NCBI GenBank assembly: GCA_945883395.1
Contig: CAMCXP010000003.1
Coordinates: forward strand, 1-49,630
DNA from: Melioribacter roseus P3M-2
GTDB taxonomy: Bacteria; Bacteroidota; Ignavibacteria; Kapaibacteriales; Kapaibacteriaceae
Direction of reading: 5' to 3'
Length of the DNA stretch: 49,630 nt
Both the position numbers and the translations under genes were made by a program. The notes beneath the pieces are model-generated. The model saw only the letters and a program-made list of their open reading frames with translations. It did no database searches and was not told where the DNA came from. Position 1 is the stretch's first letter. The number at the start of each line of letters is the position of its first letter. Positions 8,746 to 49,520 of this stretch are shown piece after piece.

Positions 8746-10704
8746 TTACTTGGCAATCACTACTGTATGCTGCGAGAGCATGCTGCCGTGTCGATCGAGC
8801 AAACGAACGAGATACATGCCGCCGTCGAGATGTGTGCCATCGATACTGATACGAAGGCCCTGCGGCGCAAGCGACATTATGCGCTCTCCGAGGAGCGACG
8901 TTACAACGACACTGTTGGCATGATCGAGGATCGGCGAGACAAGTGTGAATGCTCCATTCGTAGGATTTGGGAACACGCCCGATACAAGCCGTCCGGTGGC
9001 ATCGTACACAGATGTTCCTCCACCATTGTCGGTGGTGTCTGTGCCGCCCCCTGTGGTATCGTTCATCCAGCTTCCTGTGGTGTCGCCCACGTACTCGATT
9101 GCTCCTACATCGTACAGGCCGTACGCTGGGATGTCATTGCCCGCGAGGTCACGTGTACCAACGCTTTTGCCAAGCAAGCGTTGTACATCGACACCGCCAT
9201 TGAATGCGCGAGATAACGGAGAGCTGATCGCGTACGCTGGAATTGTCTCTGGTGCAGCTGGCCAAAGAACGCTTGCGTACCCAGCTTGCACAAGGCGTGG
9301 ATCGCCGATCCATCCCGTTGGCTTGCCATCAACGCTCTCCTGTTGTGCTCCAAGACGGAGTGAGTTGAGATCGCGATAGATCGTTCCCTGATAGTCAATC
9401 GTGATGGATGATGATGGTGACCAGTAGACGTTACCTGCGAGGTGAGCTTCATACTCGACAGGCACACGAACATGTGGAACGTTGCCTGTCGTGATGATCA
9501 CATTGTTGTAGATCCGAACGTTCTCAATGCCAGGATTCCATTTCGTGATGCCAATGCCAGCGAGTTCGGGATTTGATGCTGAGGGCGAGGTGTAAATCGT
9601 GTTGTTGTAGATATATGCATCACGGATCGTCGTTGTGGTGCCGCCCTTGAACACTGTGATTGCACTTGCATTCTTACGTCCGTCGTTCACGCTGATGTTG
9701 TAGCGACACGTGTTATTGGCCCACGGACGCGCGCCATCATACTGCCCGAGCAGGTAGCCGCCACCAGCGTTGTCGTGTGAATAGCAGTACTGAATCACCG
9801 AGTTCGTGACACCGCCATCAAGGTCGAAACCAAGTCCGTCACACGAGCTATTCGTTGCATTGCGATAGCTCTCGCTGAATTGAATCGTCACATTGTTTGC
9901 ATCATAGGCCCAGATGCCCCCTGGCCCACCACAATGCACATTGTCGCGTCCGTTCTCATAGGCAACGCAATACTCTATGAGTGCTCCATCAGTGTTGCTC
10001 ACGACAATGCCATTGCCACGAATACTCTTGGGGTCGGCGAATCCAGGATGATTGTAGGCCTTGCAACGTCGAATCGTTACGTTCTTATGTGGGTATCCAA
10101 CCTGTGAGAAGAAGCCATACACTTGAATTCCATCGTACAGATTGTCGTGTACATCAAGATCCTCGAGCAAGACATTCTCGTAGCCCGAGTTACCTTGCCA
10201 TGCGCCAACACGCACGCCGGCCTGACCAAAGTCGGAGACCACGAGATTCTTCAGCACGATGTTCTTGTACTTCACATCGCCTGCGACATCTAGAAAGAAC
10301 TCAACGCCGGCCTTTGTGTTTTTATTCATCCCGGAACCCTTGATGATCAGGTTCTCGATGTGAATGCCCTGTGAGTTGTACACGTAGATTCCGTACCCAT
10401 CCTCAGCGAGAATCGTCGCTCGCGATGACGTTCCATATGTGCTGATCACGAACGGATCAACAGCGCTATTGGCATCCTTGTCATCGAAGTACAGTCTGCC
10501 GGTGAACGTCTCACCGCCATACAACAGCAGTGAATCACCTGCATTGAAGTCGACATTCATCGTGGGCCGTAGCGTGCGCCAGGCTGTTGAGGGGTGCGTG
10601 CCGTTGTTTGCATCGTTGCCAGTGATGCTCACATAGTAGGTGCTTGCCCGCACCGGCATGATCGACAGTGCAACGAGGCAGATAATGAGGGAAAGGCGCG
10701 ACAT
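8746..10704 (-). CDS. Right-handed parallel beta-helix (pectin-lyase-like) secreted protein with T9SS CTD
   Basis: TYYVSITGNDANNG start motif, Asn/Gly-rich beta-helix repeats (DGLGFDLDGG, YCYSHDNAGGG), DVGAIEY, Gly/Thr/Asp linker, VFPNPT...GMYLVRL CTD; SD GGAG upstream. Confidence 0.85.
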   Translation of the reverse strand: MSRLSLIICLVALSIMPVRASTYYVSITGNDANNGTHPSTAWRTLRPTMNVDFNAGDSLLLYGGETFTGRLYFDDKDANSAVDPFVISTYGTSSRATILAEDGYGIYVYNSQGIHIENLIIKGSGMNKNTKAGVEFFLDVAGDVKYKNIVLKNLVVSDFGQAGVRVGAWQGNSGYENVLLEDLDVHDNLYDGIQVYGFFSQVGYPHKNVTIRRCKAYNHPGFADPKSIRGNGIVVSNTDGALIEYCVAYENGRDNVHCGGPGGIWAYDANNVTIQFSESYRNATNSSCDGLGFDLDGGVTNSVIQYCYSHDNAGGGYLLGQYDGARPWANNTCRYNISVNDGRKNASAITVFKGGTTTTIRDAYIYNNTIYTSPSASNPELAGIGITKWNPGIENVRIYNNVIITTGNVPHVRVPVEYEAHLAGNVYWSPSSSITIDYQGTIYRDLNSLRLGAQQESVDGKPTGWIGDPRLVQAGYASVLWPAAPETIPAYAISSPLSRAFNGGVDVQRLLGKSVGTRDLAGNDIPAYGLYDVGAIEYVGDTTGSWMNDTTGGGTDTTDNGGGTSVYDATGRLVSGVFPNPTNGAFTLVSPILDHANSVVVTSLLGERIMSLAPQGLRISIDGTHLDGGMYLVRLLDRHGSMLSQHTVVIAK

Positions 10705-24703: not shown

Positions 24704-25999
24704 ATGAAGAAAATCGGCGTTATCATCTCGCACGAATACCGGATCCGTGTTCGGGCTAAGTGGTTTATCATCTCTACACTTTTGGCTCCGCTCGGAGTTG
24801 CCCTGCTGATCGCTGTGCCCGTAATCGCAGCATTGCTTGCAGGCGACGGTACCGAGGGGAAGATCGCCCTAGTCGACCGAACCGGATTGATCGCTCCGGC
24901 GGTTGTGGCCTCGGATACGGCCCGATTTGAGCTGGTCGGCTCACGGTCGGAGCGGGACCTCGCGCAAGCGGTTCGGGACGAGTCAATCCAGGCCTACGTG
25001 GTGATCCCGGAGAATGTCCTGGATTCAGGTGCAGTAACGATGTATTCTCGAGGTGGCTCGGGTATTGCCTTCTCGTCGTCGATTGAAAGCGCGATCGAGC
25101 CGGTCGTTACGCGTGCACGCCTTACGCAACGTGGAACAGACACCTCGGTGATCGATCTGGTCGAGCAGGGCGTCCGCGTTATCGGCCTCAAGCAGACAGA
25201 CGAGGGTGTGAAGGCCGATACCAGCGAAGCATCTGCGATGATTGGCTACATCAGTGGCTTCGTGATCTACATGCTGATCTTCCTGTACGGCTCGATGGTG
25301 ATGCGCGGTGTGGTCGAGGAAAAGGCCAACCGCATCATCGAAGTGATTGCCAGCTCTGCACGCCCCTTCGAGATCATGATGGGGAAGGTTGTCGGTATTG
25401 GCCTCGTCGGGCTCACACAGCTAAGCGCGTGGTTTGTGCTCGGCAGCATTGTAACGACGGTGGCAGGTCTTGCACTGTCATCATCATTGCCAGCGCCGGA
25501 TCCAACGAATCCAATGATGCAAGAGGGCGGACTGAGCGCAGTGCTTGCGCAGGAGGGTATCGCCCTTCCTGAGATTCACATCGTATCGATTCTAATGTTC
25601 ATCTTCAACTTCTTCGCAGGCTACTTCCTCTATGCATCGCTCTTCGCAGCTGTTGGCTCAGCCGTCGATCAAGAAGCAGATGCAAACTCGTTGTCGTTTC
25701 CAGTTACACTCCCAATTGGTATCACGATGCTGTTTATCGGGAATGTTATTGCCACACCAAACGGTACACTTGCTACGGTGTTGTCGATGATCCCGCTGTT
25801 CTCGCCGATCTTGATGACGGTTCGCGTTGCAGCAACCGATGTGCCGTGGTGGCAGTTGGTTGGGTCGATGGTGTTCAGTGTTGCGGGTTTCTTTGGCGCT
25901 ATATGGATTGCTTCGCGCATCTACCGCATCGGCATTCTGAGTTATGGAAAGAAGCCGTCGCTGAAGGAGATCGCGCGCTGGATTACTCAGCGTGTGTGA
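24704..25999 (+). CDS. ABC-2 type transporter permease (NatB/YhaP-like)
   Basis: N-terminal TM, periplasmic loop, YGSMVMRGVVEEKANRIIEVIASS...MMGKVVG, YASLFAAVGS, IYRIGIL-x-YGK. Confidence 0.92.
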   Translation: MKKIGVIISHEYRIRVRAKWFIISTLLAPLGVALLIAVPVIAALLAGDGTEGKIALVDRTGLIAPAVVASDTARFELVGSRSERDLAQAVRDESIQAYVVIPENVLDSGAVTMYSRGGSGIAFSSSIESAIEPVVTRARLTQRGTDTSVIDLVEQGVRVIGLKQTDEGVKADTSEASAMIGYISGFVIYMLIFLYGSMVMRGVVEEKANRIIEVIASSARPFEIMMGKVVGIGLVGLTQLSAWFVLGSIVTTVAGLALSSSLPAPDPTNPMMQEGGLSAVLAQEGIALPEIHIVSILMFIFNFFAGYFLYASLFAAVGSAVDQEADANSLSFPVTLPIGITMLFIGNVIATPNGTLATVLSMIPLFSPILMTVRVAATDVPWWQLVGSMVFSVAGFFGAIWIASRIYRIGILSYGKKPSLKEIARWITQRV

Positions 26000-27923
26000 T
26001 TACAAGGGGCAGGGTGTAGGTAGCACCTGGCTCTTCAATCACAATCGAGTAGCCGCCGCTGGCAAATCCTGCTGTCGACATGGAGTGTTCTGTTGTACCA
26101 GACGTGATGCGGTCGCGTACCACGACGCGTCCATCGACGGACACAATACTGATACGCGCCTCGCGCTGTGACGACGTCCGCATGATGCGCACGCGATCAG
26201 CCGCTGGGTTTGGTGCAACGCTGTAGCGTTCCTGCGCGGAGCTGTGATGCTCATCCGCAGATGTTACGGTCGACTTCACGATCGATGCCAGAACGCGTGA
26301 GCGTGTGCCCGTGTTGATTCCAATCAGTGAATCACACGTCACGGTCCACGATCCATCCGCTGCACAATACATGATCGTGTCGATGATCGTACTACGCTCA
26401 CCATCGCGACGCGCATAGGTAATGTTCAGGGGCAGCGTAGTGAATATTGGCCAACCTTGTGTGGTTGGTTGTACTTGACGAATGCGTACGCGCATGTCGG
26501 TGATGTTGTGTTCAACGTCGAGCAATGCCCAACCTTTGCTGGTAACCCATTCGTTGAAGAACGCCGCAGTCCGATCACCTAATGCAGGCTGCATCGCGAT
26601 ACGGAAGTCGTCCGTCGTTGCATTGCCAAAGGTGTTGTCGGCCACGTAGGCTTTCATCGCATCGAAGAAGGCAGAATCGCCGGCGATGGCACGCGCCATT
26701 GCTAGTACAACTGCACCCTTCTGATAAATCGTCGCAGGGTAGTTCGATGATGGCGACGTGCGCGGATAATCCTCGAGTGCGAAGGTACCCTCACGTGGTG
26801 CGATCTGCGTGATGTACGTGCGTGCTTTCGATTGCACGGATGCAAGGTAGGCGGCAGCACCACGCAGATGCTCTAACCACACACTTTCGCTGAAGGTCGC
26901 AAAACTCTCACTCAGCCACGCGTAGCGGAAGTCTTGCGGTGTAACGCAATCGCCAAACCACTGATGCGCAAGCTCGTGCGCAGCAACGATGTTTGCGGTG
27001 TCGCGCCGTTGCACTTCACTGAGTGCAATGGCAATCATGCCTTGATGTTCCATTGAGCCAAGCTGCGAGGTGTAGTACCCAACTTTCGAAAACGGGTACT
27101 GACCATATAGCCTCGAATAGGTCTCGGTCATGCGCGGCACACGTGAAAATGCAATCGCAGCCGATGCGCTATCACGACGGCGCATGTAGAAGATGTGCGG
27201 TACAACACCTGGCGCTGTTTGCGTGATGTAGCGTCCGGCTGCAAACGTGAGCAAGTATGTCGCCGAGGGACGGGTTTCTGTCCACTCATACGTTGCACGA
27301 CCGTCGGGCGCAACTGCAACTGGCGTAGCTACACCATTGGATGCAACAAGCCATTGGGCGTTTGGCACGGTGAAACGCGCATGAAACGTGGCCTTATCCG
27401 ATGGATGGTCATAACACGGAAGCCAGTGTTGCGTTGCCGAGACGTTCGGGCTCGCGAAGCCAACACCCAAACAATACAGAACGCTATCCTGGTAGTGCAC
27501 GCCGCCCCATGCCGAGGGTCCGCCCTCGTTGGTCATGGTGCCACTGTAGAACACATCGATGGTATCACATTGGTTGCGCTTAACACGTGCGTTGATCGCA
27601 ACGGCGTAGTGCATTGTATCGACGTTGTCCGTTCCCACGCGAGGTGCTGATGTGCGCGAACGCTGCTGTTGGATCACAAACACCGAATCGATGGTCAGTC
27701 CACGCAGATTGATAGGGAAGGTCGACACCACAGTGTCGGCCATCCAACGCACGGCGATGCGGCAGCGTCCGACGATTGTCTTTGCAGCTGGATTCGGGAA
27801 GGTGATGTCGGCATCGTAGTGCTCAACATCAAACGCCTGTGGTCGGAAGAACGTTGGCGAGGAGACTTGTGAGAGCGCGGGTGTTGCGCTCACAAGAAGC
27901 AAGGCGAGGAGGAAACGTACCAT
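25983..27923 (-). CDS. Secreted M1-family aminopeptidase with T9SS CTD
   Basis: WLPCYDHPSDKATF, GSMEH (GxMEN-like), HELAHQWFG-x-WLSE, YQKGA; CTD VAPNPAAD...VDGR...SGGYSI. Confidence 0.92.
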   Translation of the reverse strand: MVRFLLALLLVSATPALSQVSSPTFFRPQAFDVEHYDADITFPNPAAKTIVGRCRIAVRWMADTVVSTFPINLRGLTIDSVFVIQQQRSRTSAPRVGTDNVDTMHYAVAINARVKRNQCDTIDVFYSGTMTNEGGPSAWGGVHYQDSVLYCLGVGFASPNVSATQHWLPCYDHPSDKATFHARFTVPNAQWLVASNGVATPVAVAPDGRATYEWTETRPSATYLLTFAAGRYITQTAPGVVPHIFYMRRRDSASAAIAFSRVPRMTETYSRLYGQYPFSKVGYYTSQLGSMEHQGMIAIALSEVQRRDTANIVAAHELAHQWFGDCVTPQDFRYAWLSESFATFSESVWLEHLRGAAAYLASVQSKARTYITQIAPREGTFALEDYPRTSPSSNYPATIYQKGAVVLAMARAIAGDSAFFDAMKAYVADNTFGNATTDDFRIAMQPALGDRTAAFFNEWVTSKGWALLDVEHNITDMRVRIRQVQPTTQGWPIFTTLPLNITYARRDGERSTIIDTIMYCAADGSWTVTCDSLIGINTGTRSRVLASIVKSTVTSADEHHSSAQERYSVAPNPAADRVRIMRTSSQREARISIVSVDGRVVVRDRITSGTTEHSMSTAGFASGGYSIVIEEPGATYTLPLVITHAE

Positions 27924-27938
27924 GGCGTACAACATACC

Positions 27939-27971
27939 AAAAAGGGCCACCGCCGTGAAGCAGTGGCCCTT
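27939..27971 (-). terminator. Terminator of the 27993-30302 gene
   Basis: AAGGGCCAC(c)GC-cgtgaa-GC(a)GTGGCCCTT, fully paired on the minus strand with one G-U, followed by a U-tract. Confidence 0.8.
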
Positions 27972-27992: not shown

Positions 27993-30302
27993 TTAGCGGA
28001 TGATCTGCAGCGGCAGCGCAAAGTTGGTTGTGCCGTTTGTCACGTGCACCATCACCATGCCCGACGGCAGCGATGCTGTTGCAAGCTGCATCGTTGTTTC
28101 ACCAGCGACCACGTCAACTGTCTGCGTTGCAAGCGTTACACCCGTCATCGACACAACACGAATTGTTGCTGTGCCAGTTGTCGCGATGAAGCGCAGCGAA
28201 GCTGATGCAGCAGCCGGGTTCGGGAAGAGGTTGACACGTGTGCCGACGGCATCGACAGGTACGTCGACGCTTGTCGTGCTCATCACAAGTCCGATGCTGA
28301 CTTCTTGATCGAGGCGCTGATTGTCAACGATGATCGTCTCAACTGTCGGTGCATAGTCTACACGGTCGGCTTCGAGTGTGACGGTGCCATAGGAAAGCTC
28401 CGTGAGTTCGTATGCGCCTTCGTTCTCCGACATCGCAAAGTCGATTACATCGCCTTGCTCGTCGCGTGCGAGAATCAGCGTGCCCACAACAGCGGCATTG
28501 CCTTGTGGTGTTTCTTCGCCAACCTTATGAACGATGCCACCACGCTTGTCGTACACCCATCCGCGGACGCGACCCTTGCCGCGCTCACCCTTTGCTGTGT
28601 CGAGCAGAATATCGTGTTGGAGCGCAACCATCATGTCGCCTACCTCAACGCGTGTTGCGTTGAGCCATGAGCCAACTGCCTTCTCACCCATGCGCATCCA
28701 ACCAGGGATGTATGGTCGTGCACCCGGCATACCGAAGACGATGTAGACGCCTGGTGTGAGGTTTGCAAATGCGTAGTTGCCGTTTGCATCCGTTTCGACG
28801 CTGTAGGCCTTGTTCTTGATGATCACGGAGTCGCCATTTTCCTTTGCACGACCCACAAGCTGATGTGCAACAACCTTACCATTGACGCCAGCGCTGGTGT
28901 AGAAGTTCTTCATCGTTCCCGTAAAGCCATTCTGGTATACCGGACGCTTGTCCATTGGGAAGTCGATACCGTCTTCGTTTGCGCTGATGTTGATCGTCGT
29001 TGCTTGCGTTGCGTCATTGGTGTTATTCCAGAACTCAACGAGATATTCGATCTGCTTGTCACGTCCAAGAACTGTTGCTGTGCCGATGTATGGGATGCCA
29101 GCTTGAATCCTGACTTCGTAGAGTCCGTCAGCATTTGTTTCAGCTACCACACGACGCATCTGTGCGTTGGCCGCGAGTGGATCACGTGAGCGCACTTCGA
29201 AGACAACTAGTGCCTTGAGTCCGCCGTTTGTTTCTGCATCGAAGACACGTCCAGCGATTACAACCTTGACTGCTTCAGCACGCTTTGCGACAACGAAGTT
29301 GATCGTCTCAGCTTGGTCACATTCAATAGTGACACTCTTTGCGTCCGCAAGTTCAACCGCATTTTCAAACCATTCTGCAACGAATGCTTCACCTTCAACA
29401 CGAAGCTTGTAGGTGCCTGCAGGAACCTTCAGTTCGTACTTGCCGGCAACAATCTTCGCTGTGTAGACCGGACGATACCCAACACTCGTATCACCGTTGG
29501 GTGTGCGAACGATGCGCTCCATGCGCCATGCTGTTACAACACCGTTTGCTGTGGCATTTGCCCCTTCGATCGTGACCGCGCCCTTGAAGGTTGCGCATGT
29601 TTCTTCCTTCGGCTTATCGCCACCGATTTCAAGAACATACGTCTGATACGTCATGATGATCTGACCGCCGACTTCAACCCATGCTTTGATCTTGATCTCG
29701 TAGCGACCTGCACGTGGGCTTTCCCAGACAATAAGGCCTGTCTCTTGATCAATCGTCATGCCTTCCGGACCATTCACGATGCCGTAACGAATCTTCGTGC
29801 CGGCGTTTGTCTCTGCACGAACAGGATAGGTGTAGCGCTTTCCTGCAGAGCCGTTCTTCAAAGGAACAGAAACGATAATGACCTTCTTCTCGCTCTTATC
29901 CTTGATCGTAACCACCTTGATCATCGTGCGGGCACTCTCTTCGTTGCCCCAAACGGCGCGCACGAAGAATGTGTATGTACCAGCTGCGAGATTCTCCACG
30001 TTGTACGTGTAGAAGTTCTCGCGAGGGGGCTTGGCAGGGTCGACAACTACTGAGCCGATCTTGGTGAACTTGGTGAGGTCTTCGGTTTCCTTCGATGCCT
30101 GATAGACGTTGTAGGAGCCAGGGACATCATTGCCCTGCATTCCGAACCAGCCTAGCATGACATACTGTGAACCGTTGCTGTTGTCGAGAACCTTCGCCTG
30201 AAATCCTTCCGGACCTGGGCGCTGTTGCGCGAATGAGGCAACGAACCCCATGGCGAACACGACCATTGCGAGCGCAAGGCGTGATAGTGATGCTACGTTC
30301 AT
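27993..30302 (-). CDS. T9SS-secreted multidomain surface protein (FN3-like, putative Ig, several carboxypeptidase-regulatory/Cna-B-like domains, CTD)
   Basis: Signal peptide ending ASFA-Q; GPEGMTIDQETGLIVW Ig motif; repeated ETNADG-Y, ETDANGNY, SENEGAY; CTD LFPNPA...SMTG...LPSGM; SD GGAG. Confidence 0.85.
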   Translation of the reverse strand: MNVASLSRLALAMVVFAMGFVASFAQQRPGPEGFQAKVLDNSNGSQYVMLGWFGMQGNDVPGSYNVYQASKETEDLTKFTKIGSVVVDPAKPPRENFYTYNVENLAAGTYTFFVRAVWGNEESARTMIKVVTIKDKSEKKVIIVSVPLKNGSAGKRYTYPVRAETNAGTKIRYGIVNGPEGMTIDQETGLIVWESPRAGRYEIKIKAWVEVGGQIIMTYQTYVLEIGGDKPKEETCATFKGAVTIEGANATANGVVTAWRMERIVRTPNGDTSVGYRPVYTAKIVAGKYELKVPAGTYKLRVEGEAFVAEWFENAVELADAKSVTIECDQAETINFVVAKRAEAVKVVIAGRVFDAETNGGLKALVVFEVRSRDPLAANAQMRRVVAETNADGLYEVRIQAGIPYIGTATVLGRDKQIEYLVEFWNNTNDATQATTINISANEDGIDFPMDKRPVYQNGFTGTMKNFYTSAGVNGKVVAHQLVGRAKENGDSVIIKNKAYSVETDANGNYAFANLTPGVYIVFGMPGARPYIPGWMRMGEKAVGSWLNATRVEVGDMMVALQHDILLDTAKGERGKGRVRGWVYDKRGGIVHKVGEETPQGNAAVVGTLILARDEQGDVIDFAMSENEGAYELTELSYGTVTLEADRVDYAPTVETIIVDNQRLDQEVSIGLVMSTTSVDVPVDAVGTRVNLFPNPAAASASLRFIATTGTATIRVVSMTGVTLATQTVDVVAGETTMQLATASLPSGMVMVHVTNGTTNFALPLQIIR

Positions 30303-30380
30303 GATAGCTCCAATGATGTGCAGTGAAACACGTGGTGACAATCGTTCTTCACCAGGTACAAACCACGACCTGCGGTTGGG

Positions 30381-44297: not shown

Positions 44298-45515
44298 TTA
44301 GACAAGCGTTCCGCACTCGGCACAGTCGGGACATTCCGACGGCGAGGCGGCTTGTGTACGCTCGAACTCGGCAATAGTTGCGACTACTTCGCGGAGCTGC
44401 TCTTCGTTGAGCTCAGGGAAGATTGGAAGCGACAGTACCGTTGCCGCAAGACAGTTCGACACAGGGTAGTCGGCGTCGTTGAAGCCGTGCTGTGTAAAGC
44501 ACTCCTGACGGTGGAATGGCACAGGGTAGTAGACTTCCGACCCAATACCAGCCGCTTGGAGGTGTGCACGCAGTGCATCGCGATGTGCCGAGCGAATAGT
44601 GTACTGGTTGAAGATGTGCACATCGGGTGCGCCACCGGGATTCATCACTGCTGGGAGCAGGATGCGGTTGTGTTCGTCGAATTGTGTGTGACCGGGAGCT
44701 TGGCTCAGTCCGGCCTCAATGAAAAGACGCGTGTAGATGTCGGCGTTGCGACGTCGCGCGGCGTGCCAGGATGCAAGATGGGGGAGCTTCACGCGAAGCA
44801 CCGCGCCTTGCATTGCATCGAGACGGAAGTTGCCACCCATGATCTTGTGGTAGTAGCGTGGCTCCATGCCGTGGTTGCGGATCTGACGCAGACGCACATT
44901 CAGCTCGTCGCTATCTGTCGTGACCAGGCCACCGTCGCCAAATGCGCCCAAGTTCTTCGTTGGGTAGAACGAAAAACATCCGATGTGTCCAATTGATCCA
45001 ACGCGACGTCCGTCGGCGGTTTGTGTGCCGATTGCTTGTGCTGCATCCTCGATCACAGGGATGTTGTGCTCTGCCGCAATTGCCATTATGGCATCGATGT
45101 CGGCGGCCTGACCAAACAAGTGCACCGGAATGATCGCCTTTGTGCGTGGCGTGATCGCCTTGCGCACTGCTTCTGGGTCGATGTTGTAGCTCACGTGATC
45201 GACATCCACCAGCACAGGCGTTGCGCCAACACGTGCAACACAGCCAGCGGTCGCGAAGAACGAAAACGTTGGGATGATCACTTCGTCGCCCGGACCGATG
45301 TTGTAGGCCATCATGGCCATTAGCAGAGCATCGGTACCGCTCGATACGCCGATGGCGTGCTTGACGCCGAGATAGGCTTCGAGCTCGCGCTCCAATGCGT
45401 CTACTTCGGGTCCCAGAATGCTCACCTGCGACTCTGCAACGCGAATCAGTGCGGCGTCGATCTCGTGCTTGAGCGTGTGATACTGTAATTTGAGGTCAAG
45501 AAGCGGGACGGGCAT
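44298..45515 (-). CDS. DegT/DnrJ/EryC1/StrS PLP-dependent sugar aminotransferase
   Basis: PLLDLK.QY, GVSSGTDAL, PVHLFGQ, IEDAAQAIG, FSFYPTKNLGAFGDGG, GGNFRLD, LSLPIFP; start ATG 45515. Confidence 0.95.
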   Translation of the reverse strand: MPVPLLDLKLQYHTLKHEIDAALIRVAESQVSILGPEVDALERELEAYLGVKHAIGVSSGTDALLMAMMAYNIGPGDEVIIPTFSFFATAGCVARVGATPVLVDVDHVSYNIDPEAVRKAITPRTKAIIPVHLFGQAADIDAIMAIAAEHNIPVIEDAAQAIGTQTADGRRVGSIGHIGCFSFYPTKNLGAFGDGGLVTTDSDELNVRLRQIRNHGMEPRYYHKIMGGNFRLDAMQGAVLRVKLPHLASWHAARRRNADIYTRLFIEAGLSQAPGHTQFDEHNRILLPAVMNPGGAPDVHIFNQYTIRSAHRDALRAHLQAAGIGSEVYYPVPFHRQECFTQHGFNDADYPVSNCLAATVLSLPIFPELNEEQLREVVATIAEFERTQAASPSECPDCAECGTLV

Positions 45516-45531
45516 TGAGAACTCGAGAATC

Positions 45532-45981
45532 ATGCAACAGAATTCAACAAAAGTAGCGAGAACATCCCGACGCACGATGCTTATCAGCATTGGTGCGCTG
45601 CTGGCATCGTGGACAGGTGCTGAGGCACTTCGACGATTCCTTGCGCCCACAAGTGACGCATCGAGTCATGCCCACGATCTTGGACCACTCGATGGTGTCG
45701 TCGCCGACGGTGCACGCAAGGAGCTGACAATCGGCGGTACGCGCGTGCTGATTGCTCGGAGAGGCAATGACGTGCGCGTGCTCGACCTCACCTGTACCCA
45801 CGCTCGGTGTCCACTCGAGGTGCACCTGCCATCGAATCGTATTCGTTGTGCGTGTCATGGAGGAGCGTTCGATCTCGAGGGCAACGTCCTCAATGCGCCG
45901 CCTGTGCGCCCCCTTTCAACACATCAAGCCCGTGTCGTCAATGGCAACCTCTATGTGCGCATCCATCAGGAGCACACCTAA
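45532..45981 (+). CDS. Rieske 2Fe-2S protein with Tat-like N-terminal anchor
   Basis: SRR followed by a hydrophobic helix, RRFLAP; boxes CTHARC and CACHGG; GNVLNAPP.RPL. Confidence 0.9.
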   Translation: MQQNSTKVARTSRRTMLISIGALLASWTGAEALRRFLAPTSDASSHAHDLGPLDGVVADGARKELTIGGTRVLIARRGNDVRVLDLTCTHARCPLEVHLPSNRIRCACHGGAFDLEGNVLNAPPVRPLSTHQARVVNGNLYVRIHQEHT

Positions 45982-46904
45982 TGCAGCAGACCGCATGGAT
46001 CGACACTGCGCGACGGATGTGTCTTGGGGTGTTTGCAATGCTCATCGGTGTCGAGCTGGTCACGGGGCTCCTGCTGGGCTTGCTCTATGAACCATCGCGG
46101 ATGCCTGCAGCAACACCCGACGGACGTCCAACAACGATGCTGATGGGTGAGCGCGTCGAGCGCGTTGGACCCTTCACCGACACCGTCGGAACTCCGTCGA
46201 CGCCGAGCTTTGTGCCTGCGCGCCCCGGCGAGCTTGTGCCAAGTGCTGCCGCAGCAAGCGTGCAAGTGCACATCGCTAATGCTCCGGGTGGTGCCATTGC
46301 ACGCGCTGTGCATCACACGCTCGCGGGATGGCTAGTGGTGTTGGCCTGCATCGTCGTTGTGTTATCTGCCATAGCGCGCGCGTATCAGCACGCTGCATCG
46401 ACCTGGGTGATGTCGATCGGGATGCTGATTATCGCCCTCGCCGCGGCATGGACTGGACGGATGTTGCCTGATGATATCTATGCCGAGGTGAGCCTTCGAA
46501 TTGTCGGACACGAGCTGTTGGAAGCGCCACTTGGCGATGCGCTCGTGGCGGTGCTGGGCATCGTGCCTGGCGAGCCCATGCTCGCGCGGACGTACTTCGT
46601 GCACATCCTAGTTGGCGCTGCGTCGGTATGGCTGGCCTATGTGCTCTGGCGGGAACGCCAGCACGTGCCGCTCGTCGTCGGCGCAGGCCTTGCGGTGGCA
46701 ATCATGGCTGCGATCATGCCGATCCACGCATTTGGTGCGCGGGATGCGGTTACGGGGCTTGCAGGCACCGTCCAAGTCGACCCCTGGTGGGTGATTCGCC
46801 CCCTTCACGAGCTGGTTGGCGTGCTCGGTGCCGAGCTCGCGGGGTATGTGATGCTTGGTGGTACGCTCGTGCTGGTCCTGCTCCCGGTCTGGAGGCGTCC
46901 ATAG
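45981..46904 (+). CDS. Divergent cytochrome b-like membrane protein
   Basis: E.VTG..L...Y.P, A.ASV, G...RAVHH, AY....TW, WTG.MLP, P.G, L.RTY.VH, PWW; TAA/ATG overlap with the Rieske gene. Confidence 0.78.
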   Translation: MQQTAWIDTARRMCLGVFAMLIGVELVTGLLLGLLYEPSRMPAATPDGRPTTMLMGERVERVGPFTDTVGTPSTPSFVPARPGELVPSAAAASVQVHIANAPGGAIARAVHHTLAGWLVVLACIVVVLSAIARAYQHAASTWVMSIGMLIIALAAAWTGRMLPDDIYAEVSLRIVGHELLEAPLGDALVAVLGIVPGEPMLARTYFVHILVGAASVWLAYVLWRERQHVPLVVGAGLAVAIMAAIMPIHAFGARDAVTGLAGTVQVDPWWVIRPLHELVGVLGAELAGYVMLGGTLVLVLLPVWRRP

Positions 46905-46935
46905 GGCTTGCATCCGTGGGCACGGGAATGCTCCC

Positions 46936-46983: not shown

Positions 46984-48096
46984 ATGTTGATCGGCGTACC
47001 AAAGGAGATCAAGCCGAGTGAGAAGCGTGTTGCTCTCACGCCTGGTGGAGTTGAAACCCTCCGTCAGCACGGCCACGATGTGATCGTTGAGACCAACTGT
47101 GGTGTTGGTTGTGGATTCACGAATGATGACTACATCGCAGCTGGTGCGAAGATCATCGATACAGCTGCTGAGGTGTATGCTCAGGCCGACATGATCATGA
47201 AGGTCAAGGAGCCAATCGCACCTGAGTACAATCTCATCCGCAAGGGTCAGACGCTGTTCACGTACTTCCACTTTGCTGCATCACGCGAACTCACCGAAGC
47301 AATGGTGAAGAGCGGCGCAACGTGTATCGCGTACGAGACAGTTCAGAAGACAGACGGATCGCTACCGCTGCTCATCCCGATGTCGGAAGTTGCTGGACGT
47401 ATGGCACCACAAGAAGGCGCAAAGTACCTCGAGCACCCAATGGGTGGACGTGGTGTGTTGCTCGGCGGTGTACCTGGTACAAAGCCAGCGAACGTGATCG
47501 TCCTCGGTGGCGGTGTCGTTGGTACAAACGCAGCGAAGATCGCAGCGGGCTTTGGTGCTCGCGTGACAATCTTCGACAACAACCTGTACCGTCTGCGCTA
47601 CCTCGATGATGTGATGCCGAAGAACGTCATCACACAGATGTCAACGAAGTCGAACATCCGTGAAGCAGTCAAGGATGCCGATCTCGTGATCGGTGGTGTG
47701 TTGATCGTTGGTGCAAAGGCACCACACCTGATCACACGCGACATGCTCAAGACGATGAAGGAAGGTTCTGTAATCGTTGACGTATCGGTTGACCAAGGCG
47801 GTTGCGTTGAGACATGCAAGCCAACAACACACGCAGATCCAACGTACGTGGTCGACGGTGTTGTACACTACGGTGTTGCAAACATGCCAGGCGCTGTGCC
47901 GTACACATCGGCTATCGCGCTCACGAACGCAACGCTCCCATACGCAGTGCAGCTTGCCAACCACGGTTGGAAGAACGCATGCAAGGCAAACAAGGAACTC
48001 GAATACGGTCTGAACGTCGTCGAAGGCAAGATCGTCTACGAAGCAGTTGCAGAAGCATTCGGTATGGACTACGCACCGGTAACGGCAGTTCTGTAA
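46984..48096 (+). CDS. ald: Alanine dehydrogenase
   Basis: MLIGVPKEIK..E.RVA, KVKEP, FTYFHFA, PMSEVAGR, GGGVVG.NAA, DQGGC.ET, VANMPGAVP. Confidence 0.97.
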   Translation: MLIGVPKEIKPSEKRVALTPGGVETLRQHGHDVIVETNCGVGCGFTNDDYIAAGAKIIDTAAEVYAQADMIMKVKEPIAPEYNLIRKGQTLFTYFHFAASRELTEAMVKSGATCIAYETVQKTDGSLPLLIPMSEVAGRMAPQEGAKYLEHPMGGRGVLLGGVPGTKPANVIVLGGGVVGTNAAKIAAGFGARVTIFDNNLYRLRYLDDVMPKNVITQMSTKSNIREAVKDADLVIGGVLIVGAKAPHLITRDMLKTMKEGSVIVDVSVDQGGCVETCKPTTHADPTYVVDGVVHYGVANMPGAVPYTSAIALTNATLPYAVQLANHGWKNACKANKELEYGLNVVEGKIVYEAVAEAFGMDYAPVTAVL

Positions 48097-48127
48097 GCTC
48101 GTATTTCAGAGAACGATGCATAGATTT

Positions 48128-48150
48128 GAGGGCCCCTACATGGGGCCCTC
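48128..48150 (+). terminator. Hairpin after ald
   Basis: GAGGGCCCC-tacat-GGGGCCCTC followed by GTTCGTTT. Confidence 0.65.
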
Positions 48151-48170
48151 GTTCGTTTATGGAGATTGCT

Positions 48171-49520
48171 ATGACTGCTATCCTACGTTCAGTTCTTATT
48201 GCCTTGCTGCTCTGTGCTGCATCGTATGGTGCATATGCGCAGATAGAACGTCAGATCAGCTTCGACGAAGCGGGCAAGATCTTCGTCGTGTCCAAGTCGA
48301 TGAACGACGAGTACCAATGGTTTGAGCCAGTCGAGACCTTCCTCGAGGCACGTCTGTTCAAGATGAGCGACTCGGCGTTTGTGCTCGAGATCCTGCGTCG
48401 TGCCGATCAAGGCAACGAGCGTGAGCGACGCCAACTCTCGATGGTGGAGATGGCAGCATTGCGTTCACGCATTCAAACAGCGGCATCACCTTCGGTCGAT
48501 ATCGGTGGTTTGGATCAGAGCGGACGCAGCACGTTGTTGTGGGGCAGCACACTGTGGTCGCTCTTCTACTACGGAACAGCAGTTTCAATTGTCTTTAGTT
48601 CTGACGGTAGCGTCAGTTCCGCACCAACCTATTTAATCGCGGGCGGACTTGGCTACTTCGTGCCTGCGCTGTTAACGCAGAATGCCAACGTGACGGCCGG
48701 TGCGGCCTCGTTGGCTGTGGGTGGCATGTTTCAGGGGGCTTTGCATGGTTGGGCACTTGGCGGATTGATCTCTGGATCGAATCTCTCCTCACGTACGGGC
48801 TTCGCACTGTCGATCCTTGGTGGAGTGTCTGAAACCGTTGCAGGCTATGTGATCGGTTCGAATACAGGAATCTCGGAAGGTGCGGCTGGCGTGATCAACA
48901 CCACAGAGTTCTACGGAGCGGCGGGTGGCGCACTGGCAGCATTGACGATCATGGGTAACGTCACTGAAGGCGATGCAGGAATTCGCGTCCTATCAGGTCT
49001 TGGACTTGTTGGTGCCGCCGGTGGTATTCTTCTTGGCAATGAGATCATCAAGTCGCAACACATTACCAACTCGGATGCAACGGTCTATGCGCTGACGGGT
49101 GCGCTTGGTCTTGGCCTGCCCTATGCCGTTCTATCAGCCGTGAGCACAGACAACGTATCGACGAGAGTTATAACCGGGATTGGGCTCTTGGGAGCAGCAG
49201 GGGGCTTATACCTCGGTACAAGGCTTATTGACGGACTCGACTATCGTGAAGGCGACGGCTCCACGTTCCTTCTCAGTACACTCGCCGGAGGTGTTATCGG
49301 CGTTGGTATTGCACAGCTCGTGGATTCACCCCGGGCTATTGGGCCGCTCGTGTGGGCATCGGCAGCAGGTGGGTTCCTCATCGGTCGTGCCCTTGCACGT
49401 CCGGACGCAGAGGGTACGTCCATGGGCAAGCTCGACGTGAACTTCAATCCGCTCGGACTCGTCCTCGGCGCTCGTTCGAACGTTCCGATGCCAATCGGCT
49501 CGGTGACTTATCGCTTCTGA
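48171..49520 (+). CDS. Exported Gly-rich multi-helical hydrophobic protein with C-terminal beta-signal-like tail
   Basis: Signal peptide ending AYA-Q, SD GGAG; many GxxxG-rich helices; ends PIGSVTYRF. Confidence 0.8.
   Translation: MTAILRSVLIALLLCAASYGAYAQIERQISFDEAGKIFVVSKSMNDEYQWFEPVETFLEARLFKMSDSAFVLEILRRADQGNERERRQLSMVEMAALRSRIQTAASPSVDIGGLDQSGRSTLLWGSTLWSLFYYGTAVSIVFSSDGSVSSAPTYLIAGGLGYFVPALLTQNANVTAGAASLAVGGMFQGALHGWALGGLISGSNLSSRTGFALSILGGVSETVAGYVIGSNTGISEGAAGVINTTEFYGAAGGALAALTIMGNVTEGDAGIRVLSGLGLVGAAGGILLGNEIIKSQHITNSDATVYALTGALGLGLPYAVLSAVSTDNVSTRVITGIGLLGAAGGLYLGTRLIDGLDYREGDGSTFLLSTLAGGVIGVGIAQLVDSPRAIGPLVWASAAGGFLIGRALARPDAEGTSMGKLDVNFNPLGLVLGARSNVPMPIGSVTYRF

Follow-up and report, generated by a model that had tools for sequence, protein, structure and literature searches.

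Positions 45532 to 46904 of the DNA stretch analyzed here hold two overlapping genes, one for a Rieske [2Fe-2S] protein and one for a cytochrome b homologue that is predicted to bind only the outer of the two usual b haems. The stretch, referred to below as the window, is the entire 49,630-nucleotide sequence taken from contig CAMCXP010000003.1 of GenBank assembly GCA_945883395.1 (Melioribacter roseus P3M-2, placed by GTDB in the family Kapaibacteriaceae of the Ignavibacteria). A Q cycle depends on a pair of b haems spanning the membrane. In this protein and in every aligned relative, the histidine pair that would bind the inner haem, bH, is absent, and the pair for the outer haem, bL, is kept. 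From sequence and a structural model, we conclude that the genes encode a stand-alone Rieske/cytochrome b pair with a predicted single haem, and that they belong to the core of their genus. At a probability of roughly 0.55, our preferred and partly inferred reading is that the pair forms an auxiliary complex that oxidizes menaquinol without a Q cycle. The original prediction, made from the letters of the sequence, had proposed a bL-only module that cannot run a Q cycle and is not decaying; that proposal stands at the level of sequence and model.

The two genes and the ligand positions of the cytochrome b are as follows.

45532 to 45981, plus strand: Rieske [2Fe-2S] protein, 149 aa, with an N-terminal helix or anchor followed by a short beta-rich head domain (Pfam PF00355, 9e-14).
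45981 to 46904, plus strand: cytochrome b homologue, 307 aa, with six predicted membrane helices, A to F (Pfam, phmmer, hhalign, AlphaFold2, and Foldseek).
46311 to 46313, plus strand: H111, first His of helix B at the bL ligand position, with R108 before it (aligned to QcrB helix B).
46353 to 46355, plus strand: V125, site of the missing helix-B ligand of bH (hhalign column).
46602 to 46604, plus strand: H208, first His of helix D at the bL ligand position.
46644 to 46649, plus strand: L222-W223, site of the missing helix-D ligand of bH.

The register of these histidines was fixed by three independent alignments, all of which concur. A phmmer search of the PDB placed RAVHH on RQMHH and ARTYFVH on DRFYIAH of the Corynebacterium glutamicum QcrB (7q21_B; E 3.3e-5). 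We then compared two profiles by hhalign: A2, a family alignment of 37 rows that includes relatives down to 20% identity, and A3, a ten-row cytochrome b alignment in which nine rows keep the second His of helix B and one is two-His. The profiles aligned over 272 columns with a probability of 99.8 (E 9.2e-30), setting the second His of helix B on V125 and that of helix D on a gap beside L222/W223. Within A2 itself, H111, H208, R108, and G159 are present in 37/37 rows and G29 in 36/37; we take these five residues to be the ones that hold or pack the outer haem bL in canonical bc1 structures. None of the 37 rows has a His at 125, 222, or 223, and column 125 is made up largely of W (11 rows), L (10), V (7), A (3), F (2), and I (2). 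Only H111 and H208 are thus present out of the four axial histidines by which Rieske/cytochrome b complexes are recognized. It had been claimed that helix B keeps its first His (RAVH) with Val at +14, and that helix D keeps its first His with Leu and Trp at +14 and +15; comparison with PetB/QcrB-type sequences bears out both observations, and a search for close orthologues with all four histidines found none among the 37 aligned relatives.

If the inner haem were held by ligands other than His, or by residues misplaced in the alignments, the protein would have two haems after all. The window protein does have His137 and His228 in its cytoplasmic loops, and its C14-x-G16 in helix A recalls the CxGG of b6-type cytochromes. 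These residues are not conserved: a His lies within two columns of position 137 in 8/37 rows and of position 228 in another 8/37, Cys14 is found in 10/37, and the glycine column of helix A has Gly16 in 9/37 and Trp in 10/37. A search for substitute bH ligands across the 37 relatives found no His, Met, Cys, Lys, Tyr, or Glu at 40% or more in the cytoplasmic halves of the helices; the only residue of a candidate type above 40% on the cytoplasmic side is Tyr135 (51%), which lies in a loop. The presence of Trp both in the bH histidine column (11/37) and in the helix-A glycine column looks, from the sequences, like a filled cavity. Given also that the cytoplasmic halves are the least conserved and that the three alignments share one register, we consider a second haem very unlikely.

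Relatives were collected with a word-indexed search, which gave 21 matches, and with an exhaustive search of 1.84 billion representatives, which gave 72 matches at E ≤1e-3 and 19 at 1e-10. For pairs with dS below 1, the more distant ones being saturated for dN/dS, omega (dN/dS by the Nei-Gojobori method) was 0.10 to 0.21 for the cytochrome b and 0.09 to 0.10 for the Rieske protein. A family profile detected one copy in each of 29 species-representative genomes of the genus. In G009 and G329 the copy is in two pieces, owing to a contig end or a change of frame, and three matches continue past a single stop around model position 310 to 312, where the short form of the protein ends. Among 301 genomes sampled from the class, matches over the full length, at E ≤1e-59, came from 11 genus genomes (the source assembly included) and one sister-genus genome; 62 further genomes gave matches that were partial and weaker, to other cytochromes b. 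Both genes are also covered by independent DNA contigs from other runs. An ordinary cytochrome b in recent decay, or one altered by sequencing error, is refuted by the two-His state of 37/37 rows, the intact frames, omega values of 0.09 to 0.21, presence in 29/29 genus genomes, and the independent contigs; we found no point in support of this explanation and give it almost no weight. The intact frame had already been offered as an argument against decay, and that argument now extends to orthologues, which share the histidine loss under purifying selection.

The overall fold is that of a cytochrome b. The AlphaFold2 model of the protein (predicted local distance difference test [pLDDT] 92, predicted TM score 0.88) returned only cytochromes b among its top 50 Foldseek matches, the best in the PDB being again 7q21_B (E 1e-7, TMq 0.67), which confirms the fold; from the C-terminal (subunit-IV) part, only helices E and F are present. 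By profile, the protein passed PF13631 (Cytochrom_B_N_2; 33.9 bits against a cut-off of 27), PF00033 (Cytochrome_B) had no match in the assembly at E 0.01, and PF00032 (Cytochrom_B_C) was absent from the listing at E ≤1. It did not reach the cut-off of NCBIfam NF040969 (ExtP, the b-type cytochrome of a selenite/tellurite reduction operon; 42 bits against 290), a score that, judged from sequence, reflects merely shared cytochrome b6-like homology. An Atlas search returned only generic cytochrome b clusters, all with scores below 0.9. The family comes in two lengths. The short form, to which the window protein belongs (its gene ends at 46904), has about 307 aa and stops after helix F; the long form, of about 340 aa, has a seventh helix at its C terminus that ends with FGN.

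Two periplasmic elements set the protein apart from canonical cytochromes b.

46089 to 46244, plus strand: periplasmic insertion specific to the family, located between helix A and the ab helix, residues 37 to 88, about 52 aa.
46782 to 46793, plus strand: P268-W269-W270-V271, counterpart of the P-E-W-Y motif of the quinol-oxidizing (Qo) site (hhalign register).

The register of the Qo motif was set by hhalign and by alignment with relatives that keep PEW[YF], and it pairs P-W-W-V with P-E/D-W-Y; the earlier reading of DPWW was one residue out of register. W269 is present in 31/37 rows and W270 in 34/37. The passages of a published survey that describe Qo variants list PDWY, PVWY, PPWF, and GPWY, and PWWV is not among these (PMC4122944). 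The motif belongs to a conserved periplasmic pocket that also includes WTGRxLPDD and the cd helices. The insertion had been described as a Pro/Thr-rich stretch of roughly 40 aa. Its place after helix A was correctly seen; its size and its character as a loose linker were not, as it is predicted to form a long beta hairpin (DSSP strands 50 to 62 and 65 to 79; block pLDDT 88 to 95 in the AlphaFold2 model) in which conservation reaches 80% or more at P38, S39, G48, D67, T68, and S88, as it does at Y36, the residue that precedes the insertion. Across the six helices, the periplasmic halves average 2.48 bits of conservation and the cytoplasmic halves 1.82 (70 positions each; Mann-Whitney p 5e-7). 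In the model, an N-terminal surface helix is absent, since helix A starts from residue 2, and five residues make up the D-E loop. The short N terminus, the short D-E loop, and the weak cytoplasmic conservation point to loss of the quinone-reducing (Qi) site.

A conserved outer face raises the prospect of true bifurcation, in which the low-potential electron on haem bL would exit to the outside through an outlet that might be formed by the beta hairpin or by the outer-side histidines H249 and H276, and would be taken up by a bound partner, oxygen, or some other acceptor. The insertion is conserved and confidently modeled, H249 is found in 13/15 close rows and H276 in 14/15 (25/37 in the wider set), and the kept bL environment of R108, G29, and G159 suggests a working redox haem. 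Against this, the pair is not accompanied by any conserved partner gene, its neighbors encoding a sugar aminotransferase and an alanine dehydrogenase, and a Pfam scan of 32 relatives found no fused redox domain. H276, moreover, lies eight residues past the motif proline and aligns with a Qo-pocket position, where it may simply stand in for the lost Glu as proton acceptor. We therefore view bifurcation as unlikely.

The Rieske protein carries the following features.

45565 to 45582, plus strand: twin-arginine motif S-R-R-T-M-L, followed by a hydrophobic stretch (read from the translation).
45793 to 45810, plus strand: box I, C88-T-H90-A-R-C93, with cluster ligands C88 and H90 and disulfide cysteine C93.
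45847 to 45870, plus strand: box II, C106-A-C108-H109-G-G-A-F113, with cluster ligands C106 and H109 and disulfide cysteine C108.

Its AlphaFold2 model (pLDDT 84 overall and above 93 for residues 50 to 140) has a helix at residues 5 to 37 and a beta-rich head. Conservation was scored over 12 aligned Rieske rows, among them the partners of two other cytochrome b types. Invariant in all 12 are R13 and R14 of the twin-arginine motif, which presumably directs Tat export to the periplasmic side, C88, T89, H90, A91, and C93 of box I, C106, C108, H109, G110, G111, and F113 of box II, and P123, P124, and P127 of the proline loop. As the original prediction had stated, both disulfide cysteines are kept, and box II reads HGGAF, with Gly for the usual Ser and Phe for the usual Tyr. 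We considered HGGAF as a peculiarity of this pair and rejected that idea: it is a clade trait, HGGxF being found also in the Rieske partners of two other same-order cytochrome b types (CHGGEF at locus L015 and CHGGRF at L017). The best PDB relatives of the Rieske family are the Chlorobaculum tepidum Rieske protein 8hn2_A (7.9e-22) and Synechocystis PetC3 5cxm_A (2.6e-19), in which box II aligns as CHGAKY and CHGAEF, respectively. Their midpoint potentials are given as +160 mV (C. tepidum) and +135 mV (PetC3), and the lower values are tied to loss of the Ser hydrogen bond and, in PetC3, also of the Tyr hydrogen bond (passages of PMC10172866). The window protein has the sequence traits of the low-potential type, namely, a short head domain, a small residue in place of Ser after HG, and Phe for Tyr. 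Resemblance to the Chlorobi and PetC3 proteins thus makes a sound case for a low-potential Rieske of the ordinary menaquinol type; the earlier inference about potential holds, and what falls is the reading of HGGAF as a sign of oddity. A predicted complex of cytochrome b (A2) and Rieske protein (A4) scored 0.22 against a mark of 0.32, and we used it neither for nor against binding.

The altered Qo motif could also mean binding without turnover, Trp having replaced Glu, as would suit a noncatalytic role: a sensor of the redox state of the quinone pool, or a structural or assembly subunit of another respiratory complex. The strict retention of all redox residues of the Rieske protein argues otherwise. 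Neither protein has an output or signaling domain, and no regulator is conserved in the operon; a LiaF-like gene lies two genes off on the opposite strand, and the more distant loci hold only a 147-aa, remnant-sized homologue of it. Nothing spoke for the sensor function that had first been suggested, and we judge a noncatalytic role improbable.

Among the three functions first proposed (quinol-redox sensor, linear quinol oxidoreductase, and partner of a canonical cytochrome b), a putative linear quinol oxidoreductase is the best fit. In the mechanism that we favor, the complex would keep the periplasmic-side machinery, that is, a Tat-exported low-potential Rieske head, a Qo-like quinol pocket, and one b haem at H111 and H208, and would have lost the inner haem bH and the Qi site of quinone reduction. 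Without bH and Qi, an electron could not be recycled across the membrane, so that no Q cycle would operate. Menaquinol would be oxidized at the periplasmic face. By way of the Rieske cluster, the first electron would reach periplasmic c-type carriers and then haem-copper oxidases; the second would reside transiently on the single b haem and return to the high-potential path by a “short-circuit” route, possibly via a bL-bL contact in a dimer. Only the quinol (scalar) protons released outside would be conserved as energy. We infer the haem count, the substrate, the direction of electron flow, the dimer, and the fate of the second electron. Published passages on conventional complexes describe residual flux through short-circuits and leaks when the Qi site is disabled, and, for b6f, a proposal that short-circuit flux can sustain the whole photosynthetic chain, with the Q cycle dispensable (PMC7908018).

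The genome offers a respiratory setting for such a complex. The source assembly is 2.05 Mb in 168 contigs and 88.7% complete, and its terminal part of the chain was found in the following places.

C112:1-4412, C42:1-3413, C126:1-5476, and C89:1-335 (contig coordinates; loci L021 to L023 and L026): alternative complex III (ACIII) and oxidase loci.

The ACIII genes encode a multihaem ActA-like protein, a 1065-aa ActB-like protein, ActD (2.1e-53), a cytochrome c, and an NrfD-type ActC that is split across two contig ends. A caa3-type operon holds genes for a cytochrome c, COX2, COX1 (1.8e-148), CtaA, and CtaB. A second COX1 fragment lies at a contig end near a P-type ATPase gene, and cytochrome bd was not found in the assembly. 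ActD is present in 28/29 genus genomes, the sole miss being 69% complete, and ACIII is the more likely working quinol:cytochrome c route of the genus; the Rieske/cytochrome b complex would run parallel to it, perhaps under particular redox conditions. For the quinone itself, a futalosine-pathway MqnA/D-type match scored 35.9 bits (cut-off, 26), and the four MenB matches in the assembly were all below cut-off and are likely enoyl-CoA hydratase paralogues.

Could the pair instead serve a canonical cytochrome b encoded elsewhere? PF00033 is too weak to detect the family in the source assembly, and family profiles were used in the search for a second gene for that reason. Within the assembly, PF00033 matched nothing and PF13631 only this gene, and the A2 and A3 profiles, run against 16,036 open reading frames (ORFs) of at least 60 aa, likewise matched only this ORF. 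In 24 other genus genomes, many of them 97 to 100% complete, PF00033 gave at most one weak match each (17/24 matched; best E 1.2e-9); 15 of these 17 matches fall inside the orthologue, and the other two are 46-position matches with internal stops. With the A2/A3 and family profiles, a second cytochrome b was found in 0/13 related loci (L002 to L014, from Ignavibacteria/Kapaibacterium-type metagenome-assembled genomes) and 0/29 genus genomes. We thus rejected a partnership with a canonical cytochrome b for this lineage, as none occurs in the assembly, loci, or genus genomes searched.

A second Rieske gene of the assembly lies on another contig, in a gene group at C1:38826-40827 (L025:1827-3828). 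The group opens with a 401-aa ORF with a signal-like N terminus, a single CINCH haem-c motif, and an aromatic C terminus, which may resemble porin-cytochromes. Next come a 99-aa membrane protein and then the Tat/lipoprotein-type Rieske protein (SRRHFL...LVAGC; boxes CTHAGC/CSCHGAQF; 4.6e-13 to the Rieske profile). The 401-aa ORF had no Pfam or NCBIfam match, and an NCBIfam scan of the second-Rieske neighbors gave no family for four of five. From sequence, the ORF and the second Rieske may form a periplasmic or outer-membrane electron path, and with its outer-membrane-like C terminus the CINCH protein could belong to a route of electron uptake. Such a route would suit a reverse direction for the window's pair, in which periplasmic donors would feed the Rieske cluster, haem b, and finally the quinone pool, making the complex a quinone reductase. 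A Rieske protein expected by analogy at about +135 to +160 mV would reduce menaquinone uphill, however, and without a transmembrane haem pair the membrane potential cannot drive that step. Since the two Rieske loci also sit on different contigs, we hold reverse flow to be quite improbable.

Several points, in addition to the two cytoplasmic-loop histidines of the window protein, weigh against an auxiliary, Q-cycle-less menaquinol oxidase. The haem count follows from ligand positions, and a cofactor-free model cannot give the number of bound haems. At the Qo motif, Glu has become Trp and Tyr has become Val, a pocket unlike that of a working Qo site, and one that might bind something other than quinol. 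Use of menaquinone is hinted at by the single MqnA/D-type match. The analysis turned up no electron acceptor for the Rieske protein. Claims of absence from the assembly are soft, given its 88.7% completeness, and it is the genus genomes that carry the absence of a second cytochrome b. Finally, bypass flux in ordinary bc1 is reported, in the passages cited, to be too low to be physiological (PMC7908018), so that the site would have to be retuned in a natural enzyme.

The organization of the locus is consistent across relatives. The cytochrome b and Rieske ORFs share one base (the TAATG stop/start overlap), in line with the translational coupling noted originally, and in 11/11 related loci that have upstream DNA, the gene directly adjoining the cytochrome b on that side is the Rieske gene, with an overlap of 1 or 4 nt. 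A DegT-type aminotransferase gene lies upstream of the Rieske gene in divergent orientation in 11/11 related loci, and an alanine dehydrogenase gene lies 3′ of the cytochrome b in 13/13. With these two as neighbors, no cytochrome c gene adjoins the pair, as had been observed before. Two features follow the cytochrome b on the same strand.

46984 to 48096, plus strand: alanine dehydrogenase, the downstream neighbor (TIGR00518, 529.7 bits against a cut-off of 391.85).
48127 to 48151, plus strand: terminator-like hairpin after the alanine dehydrogenase, 10 pairs of which 8 are G-C, taken as a hint only.

The alanine dehydrogenase is possibly cotranscribed with the gene pair, and a functional link is putative. 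A weak 5-pair hairpin follows the cytochrome b (46918 to 46933), and the counts of promoter and terminator sites in our scan were not above those of shuffles. Only 16 nt lie between the Rieske start at 45532 and the probable start of the aminotransferase (MPVPLL, minus strand, 45515); with so little space in between, the divergent promoters must sit within the neighboring coding regions.

Runs that hold the stretch were mostly freshwater or lake metagenomes. The RNA evidence consists of contigs from two libraries of one study, which represent close relatives of the locus. In X19, a 3212-nt contig spans 45599 to 48194 (93% alike) and another ends at 45425; in X20, contigs cover 44949 to 45532 and 45558 to 46192 (the latter 89% alike), and parts of the stretch are without cover, which we treat as neutral. 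DNA contigs continue across 45425 to 45599, where the RNA-library contigs break. As a weak hint, this would fit divergent transcription starts near 45530 to 45560, with the Rieske, cytochrome b, and alanine dehydrogenase genes on one assembled RNA contig; DNA carry-over is possible.

Elsewhere in the window, 48180 to 49520 encodes a Gly/Ala/Ser-rich multihelix membrane protein without a Pfam or NCBIfam family, which is kept 3′ of the alanine dehydrogenase in five related loci (L002, L003, L004, L012, and L014). Three large secreted proteins with a Por_Secre_tail (type IX secretion sorting) domain, one of them an M1 peptidase, are encoded at 8746 to 10704, 25983 to 27950, and 27993 to 30341; this fits a protein degrader of the Bacteroidota group.

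To place the family among cytochromes b, we compared 72 rows, the query and 71 matches. The first His of helices B and D is kept and both second histidines are missing in 41 of them, a His being absent from helix-D positions +13 to +15 in these 41/72 rows; 15 rows have all four histidines, 2 lack only the second His of helix B, and 14 are fragments or mixed. With those 14 set aside, we built a quick maximum-likelihood tree from the other 58 rows (LG+G4, with SH-aLRT support only); it put the window protein in a 20-row clade (support, 99) within a 28-row clade (support, 95) of 27 two-His members and 1 three-His member. Eight more two-His rows nest inside four-His, actinobacterial-type QcrB, and the label needs at least three changes on the tree. 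These eight QcrB-like representatives (P0046, P0053, P0054, P0063, P0064, P0066, P0080, and P0082) have lost both second histidines, six of them carrying Gln or Arg at the helix-B position, and their nesting points to independent losses of the inner-haem ligands. Because the sample consists of matches to a two-His query, it is biased. Other cytochromes b of the same order vary at the same sites. In one type, found at L015:979-2397 and L016:85-1155 (genomes G029 and G039), Tyr occupies helix-B +14, PEWY is intact, and an insertion of about 100 aa follows helix A, with a His at helix-D +15 in L015; at L017 to L020, both inner ligands are absent.

We put forward a bolder interpretation tentatively: the pair would be a naturally evolved, stand-alone, dimeric “half” complex III for which the reactions suppressed as short-circuits in textbook bc1 are the normal route, and it would belong to a deep, mostly two-His clade (28/58 tree rows) lost from past surveys that filtered for four histidines. 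In one version, electrons would move from bL to bL between monomers with re-reduction of the semiquinone; in another, bL would pass its electron to a periplasmic low-potential acceptor via the beta hairpin.

A conserved and selected Rieske/cytochrome b pair with the outer haem site only amounts to a natural experiment. No second cytochrome b was found in the lineage searched. The pair could show a Qo site and haem bL acting alone, and this bears on debates about short-circuit suppression, inter-monomer electron transfer, and the ancestral form of these complexes. Two-His families may also be undercounted, given the pattern in 41/72 rows compared, and annotation and metabolic reconstruction should not equate every Rieske/cytochrome b pair with a proton-motive complex III.

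Our literature search found no two-His cytochrome b in Ignavibacteria/Kapabacteria, and the figures and supplements on subfamily ligand states (PMC5600118 and PMC4122944), which lay outside that search, may show such a clade. Passages of the Ignavibacterium album genome paper mention only ACIII (PMC3362086). Departures from the four-ligand rule have been described in other lineages. Kao and Hunte removed sequences that lacked any of the four histidines, and reported Pyrobaculum cytochromes b without the fourth His, for which loss of that haem was suggested (passages of PMC4122944). Dibrova et al. described a cyanobacterial subfamily K in which Glu or Gln replaces the helix-2 His and the haem-bn glycine is missing; they called its function and haem number obscure (passages of PMC5600118). 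Whereas these crenarchaeal and cyanobacterial proteins each lose one ligand, here both are gone, and whereas subfamily K consists of short cytochromes b mostly without a subunit IV of their own, here a long cytochrome b comes with a coupled Rieske gene.

One close comparison is with the Chlorobi, a sister lineage of the host, whose PetC-PetB is likewise a Rieske/cytochrome b without c1, pairing a short low-potential Rieske protein with a “long” cytochrome b in which the subunit-IV part is included. The Chlorobi genes form an operon and are not known to have a cytochrome c gene beside them. Their acceptor is given as a membrane-anchored cytochrome c-556 (passages of PMC10172866), and Chlorobi cytochromes b carry PEWY in a data set that was filtered for all four histidines (passages of PMC4122944). 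Unlike them, the window's cytochrome b lacks both bH ligands, has PWWV and a 52-aa beta-hairpin insertion, and ends after helix F at 307 aa. The QcrB of C. glutamicum, its best PDB match in both sequence and fold, has in common with it RxxHH in helix B and LPDD after helix C, but actinobacterial QcrB has four histidines, a Qi site, a long C-terminal extension (534 to 539 aa), and a place in a bcc-aa3 supercomplex. On the Rieske side, PetC3 (5CXM) has, like this protein, replaced both the Ser and the Tyr hydrogen-bond donors, the latter by Phe, yet PetC3 is reported to be lipid anchored and is encoded apart from a cytochrome b, whereas this Rieske gene is translationally coupled to one. Laboratory mutants of bc1 and b6f with a disabled Qi site oxidize quinol by short-circuits, as we propose for the window's complex; those enzymes are four-His, whereas the pair described here represents a natural, conserved family with a remodeled pocket.

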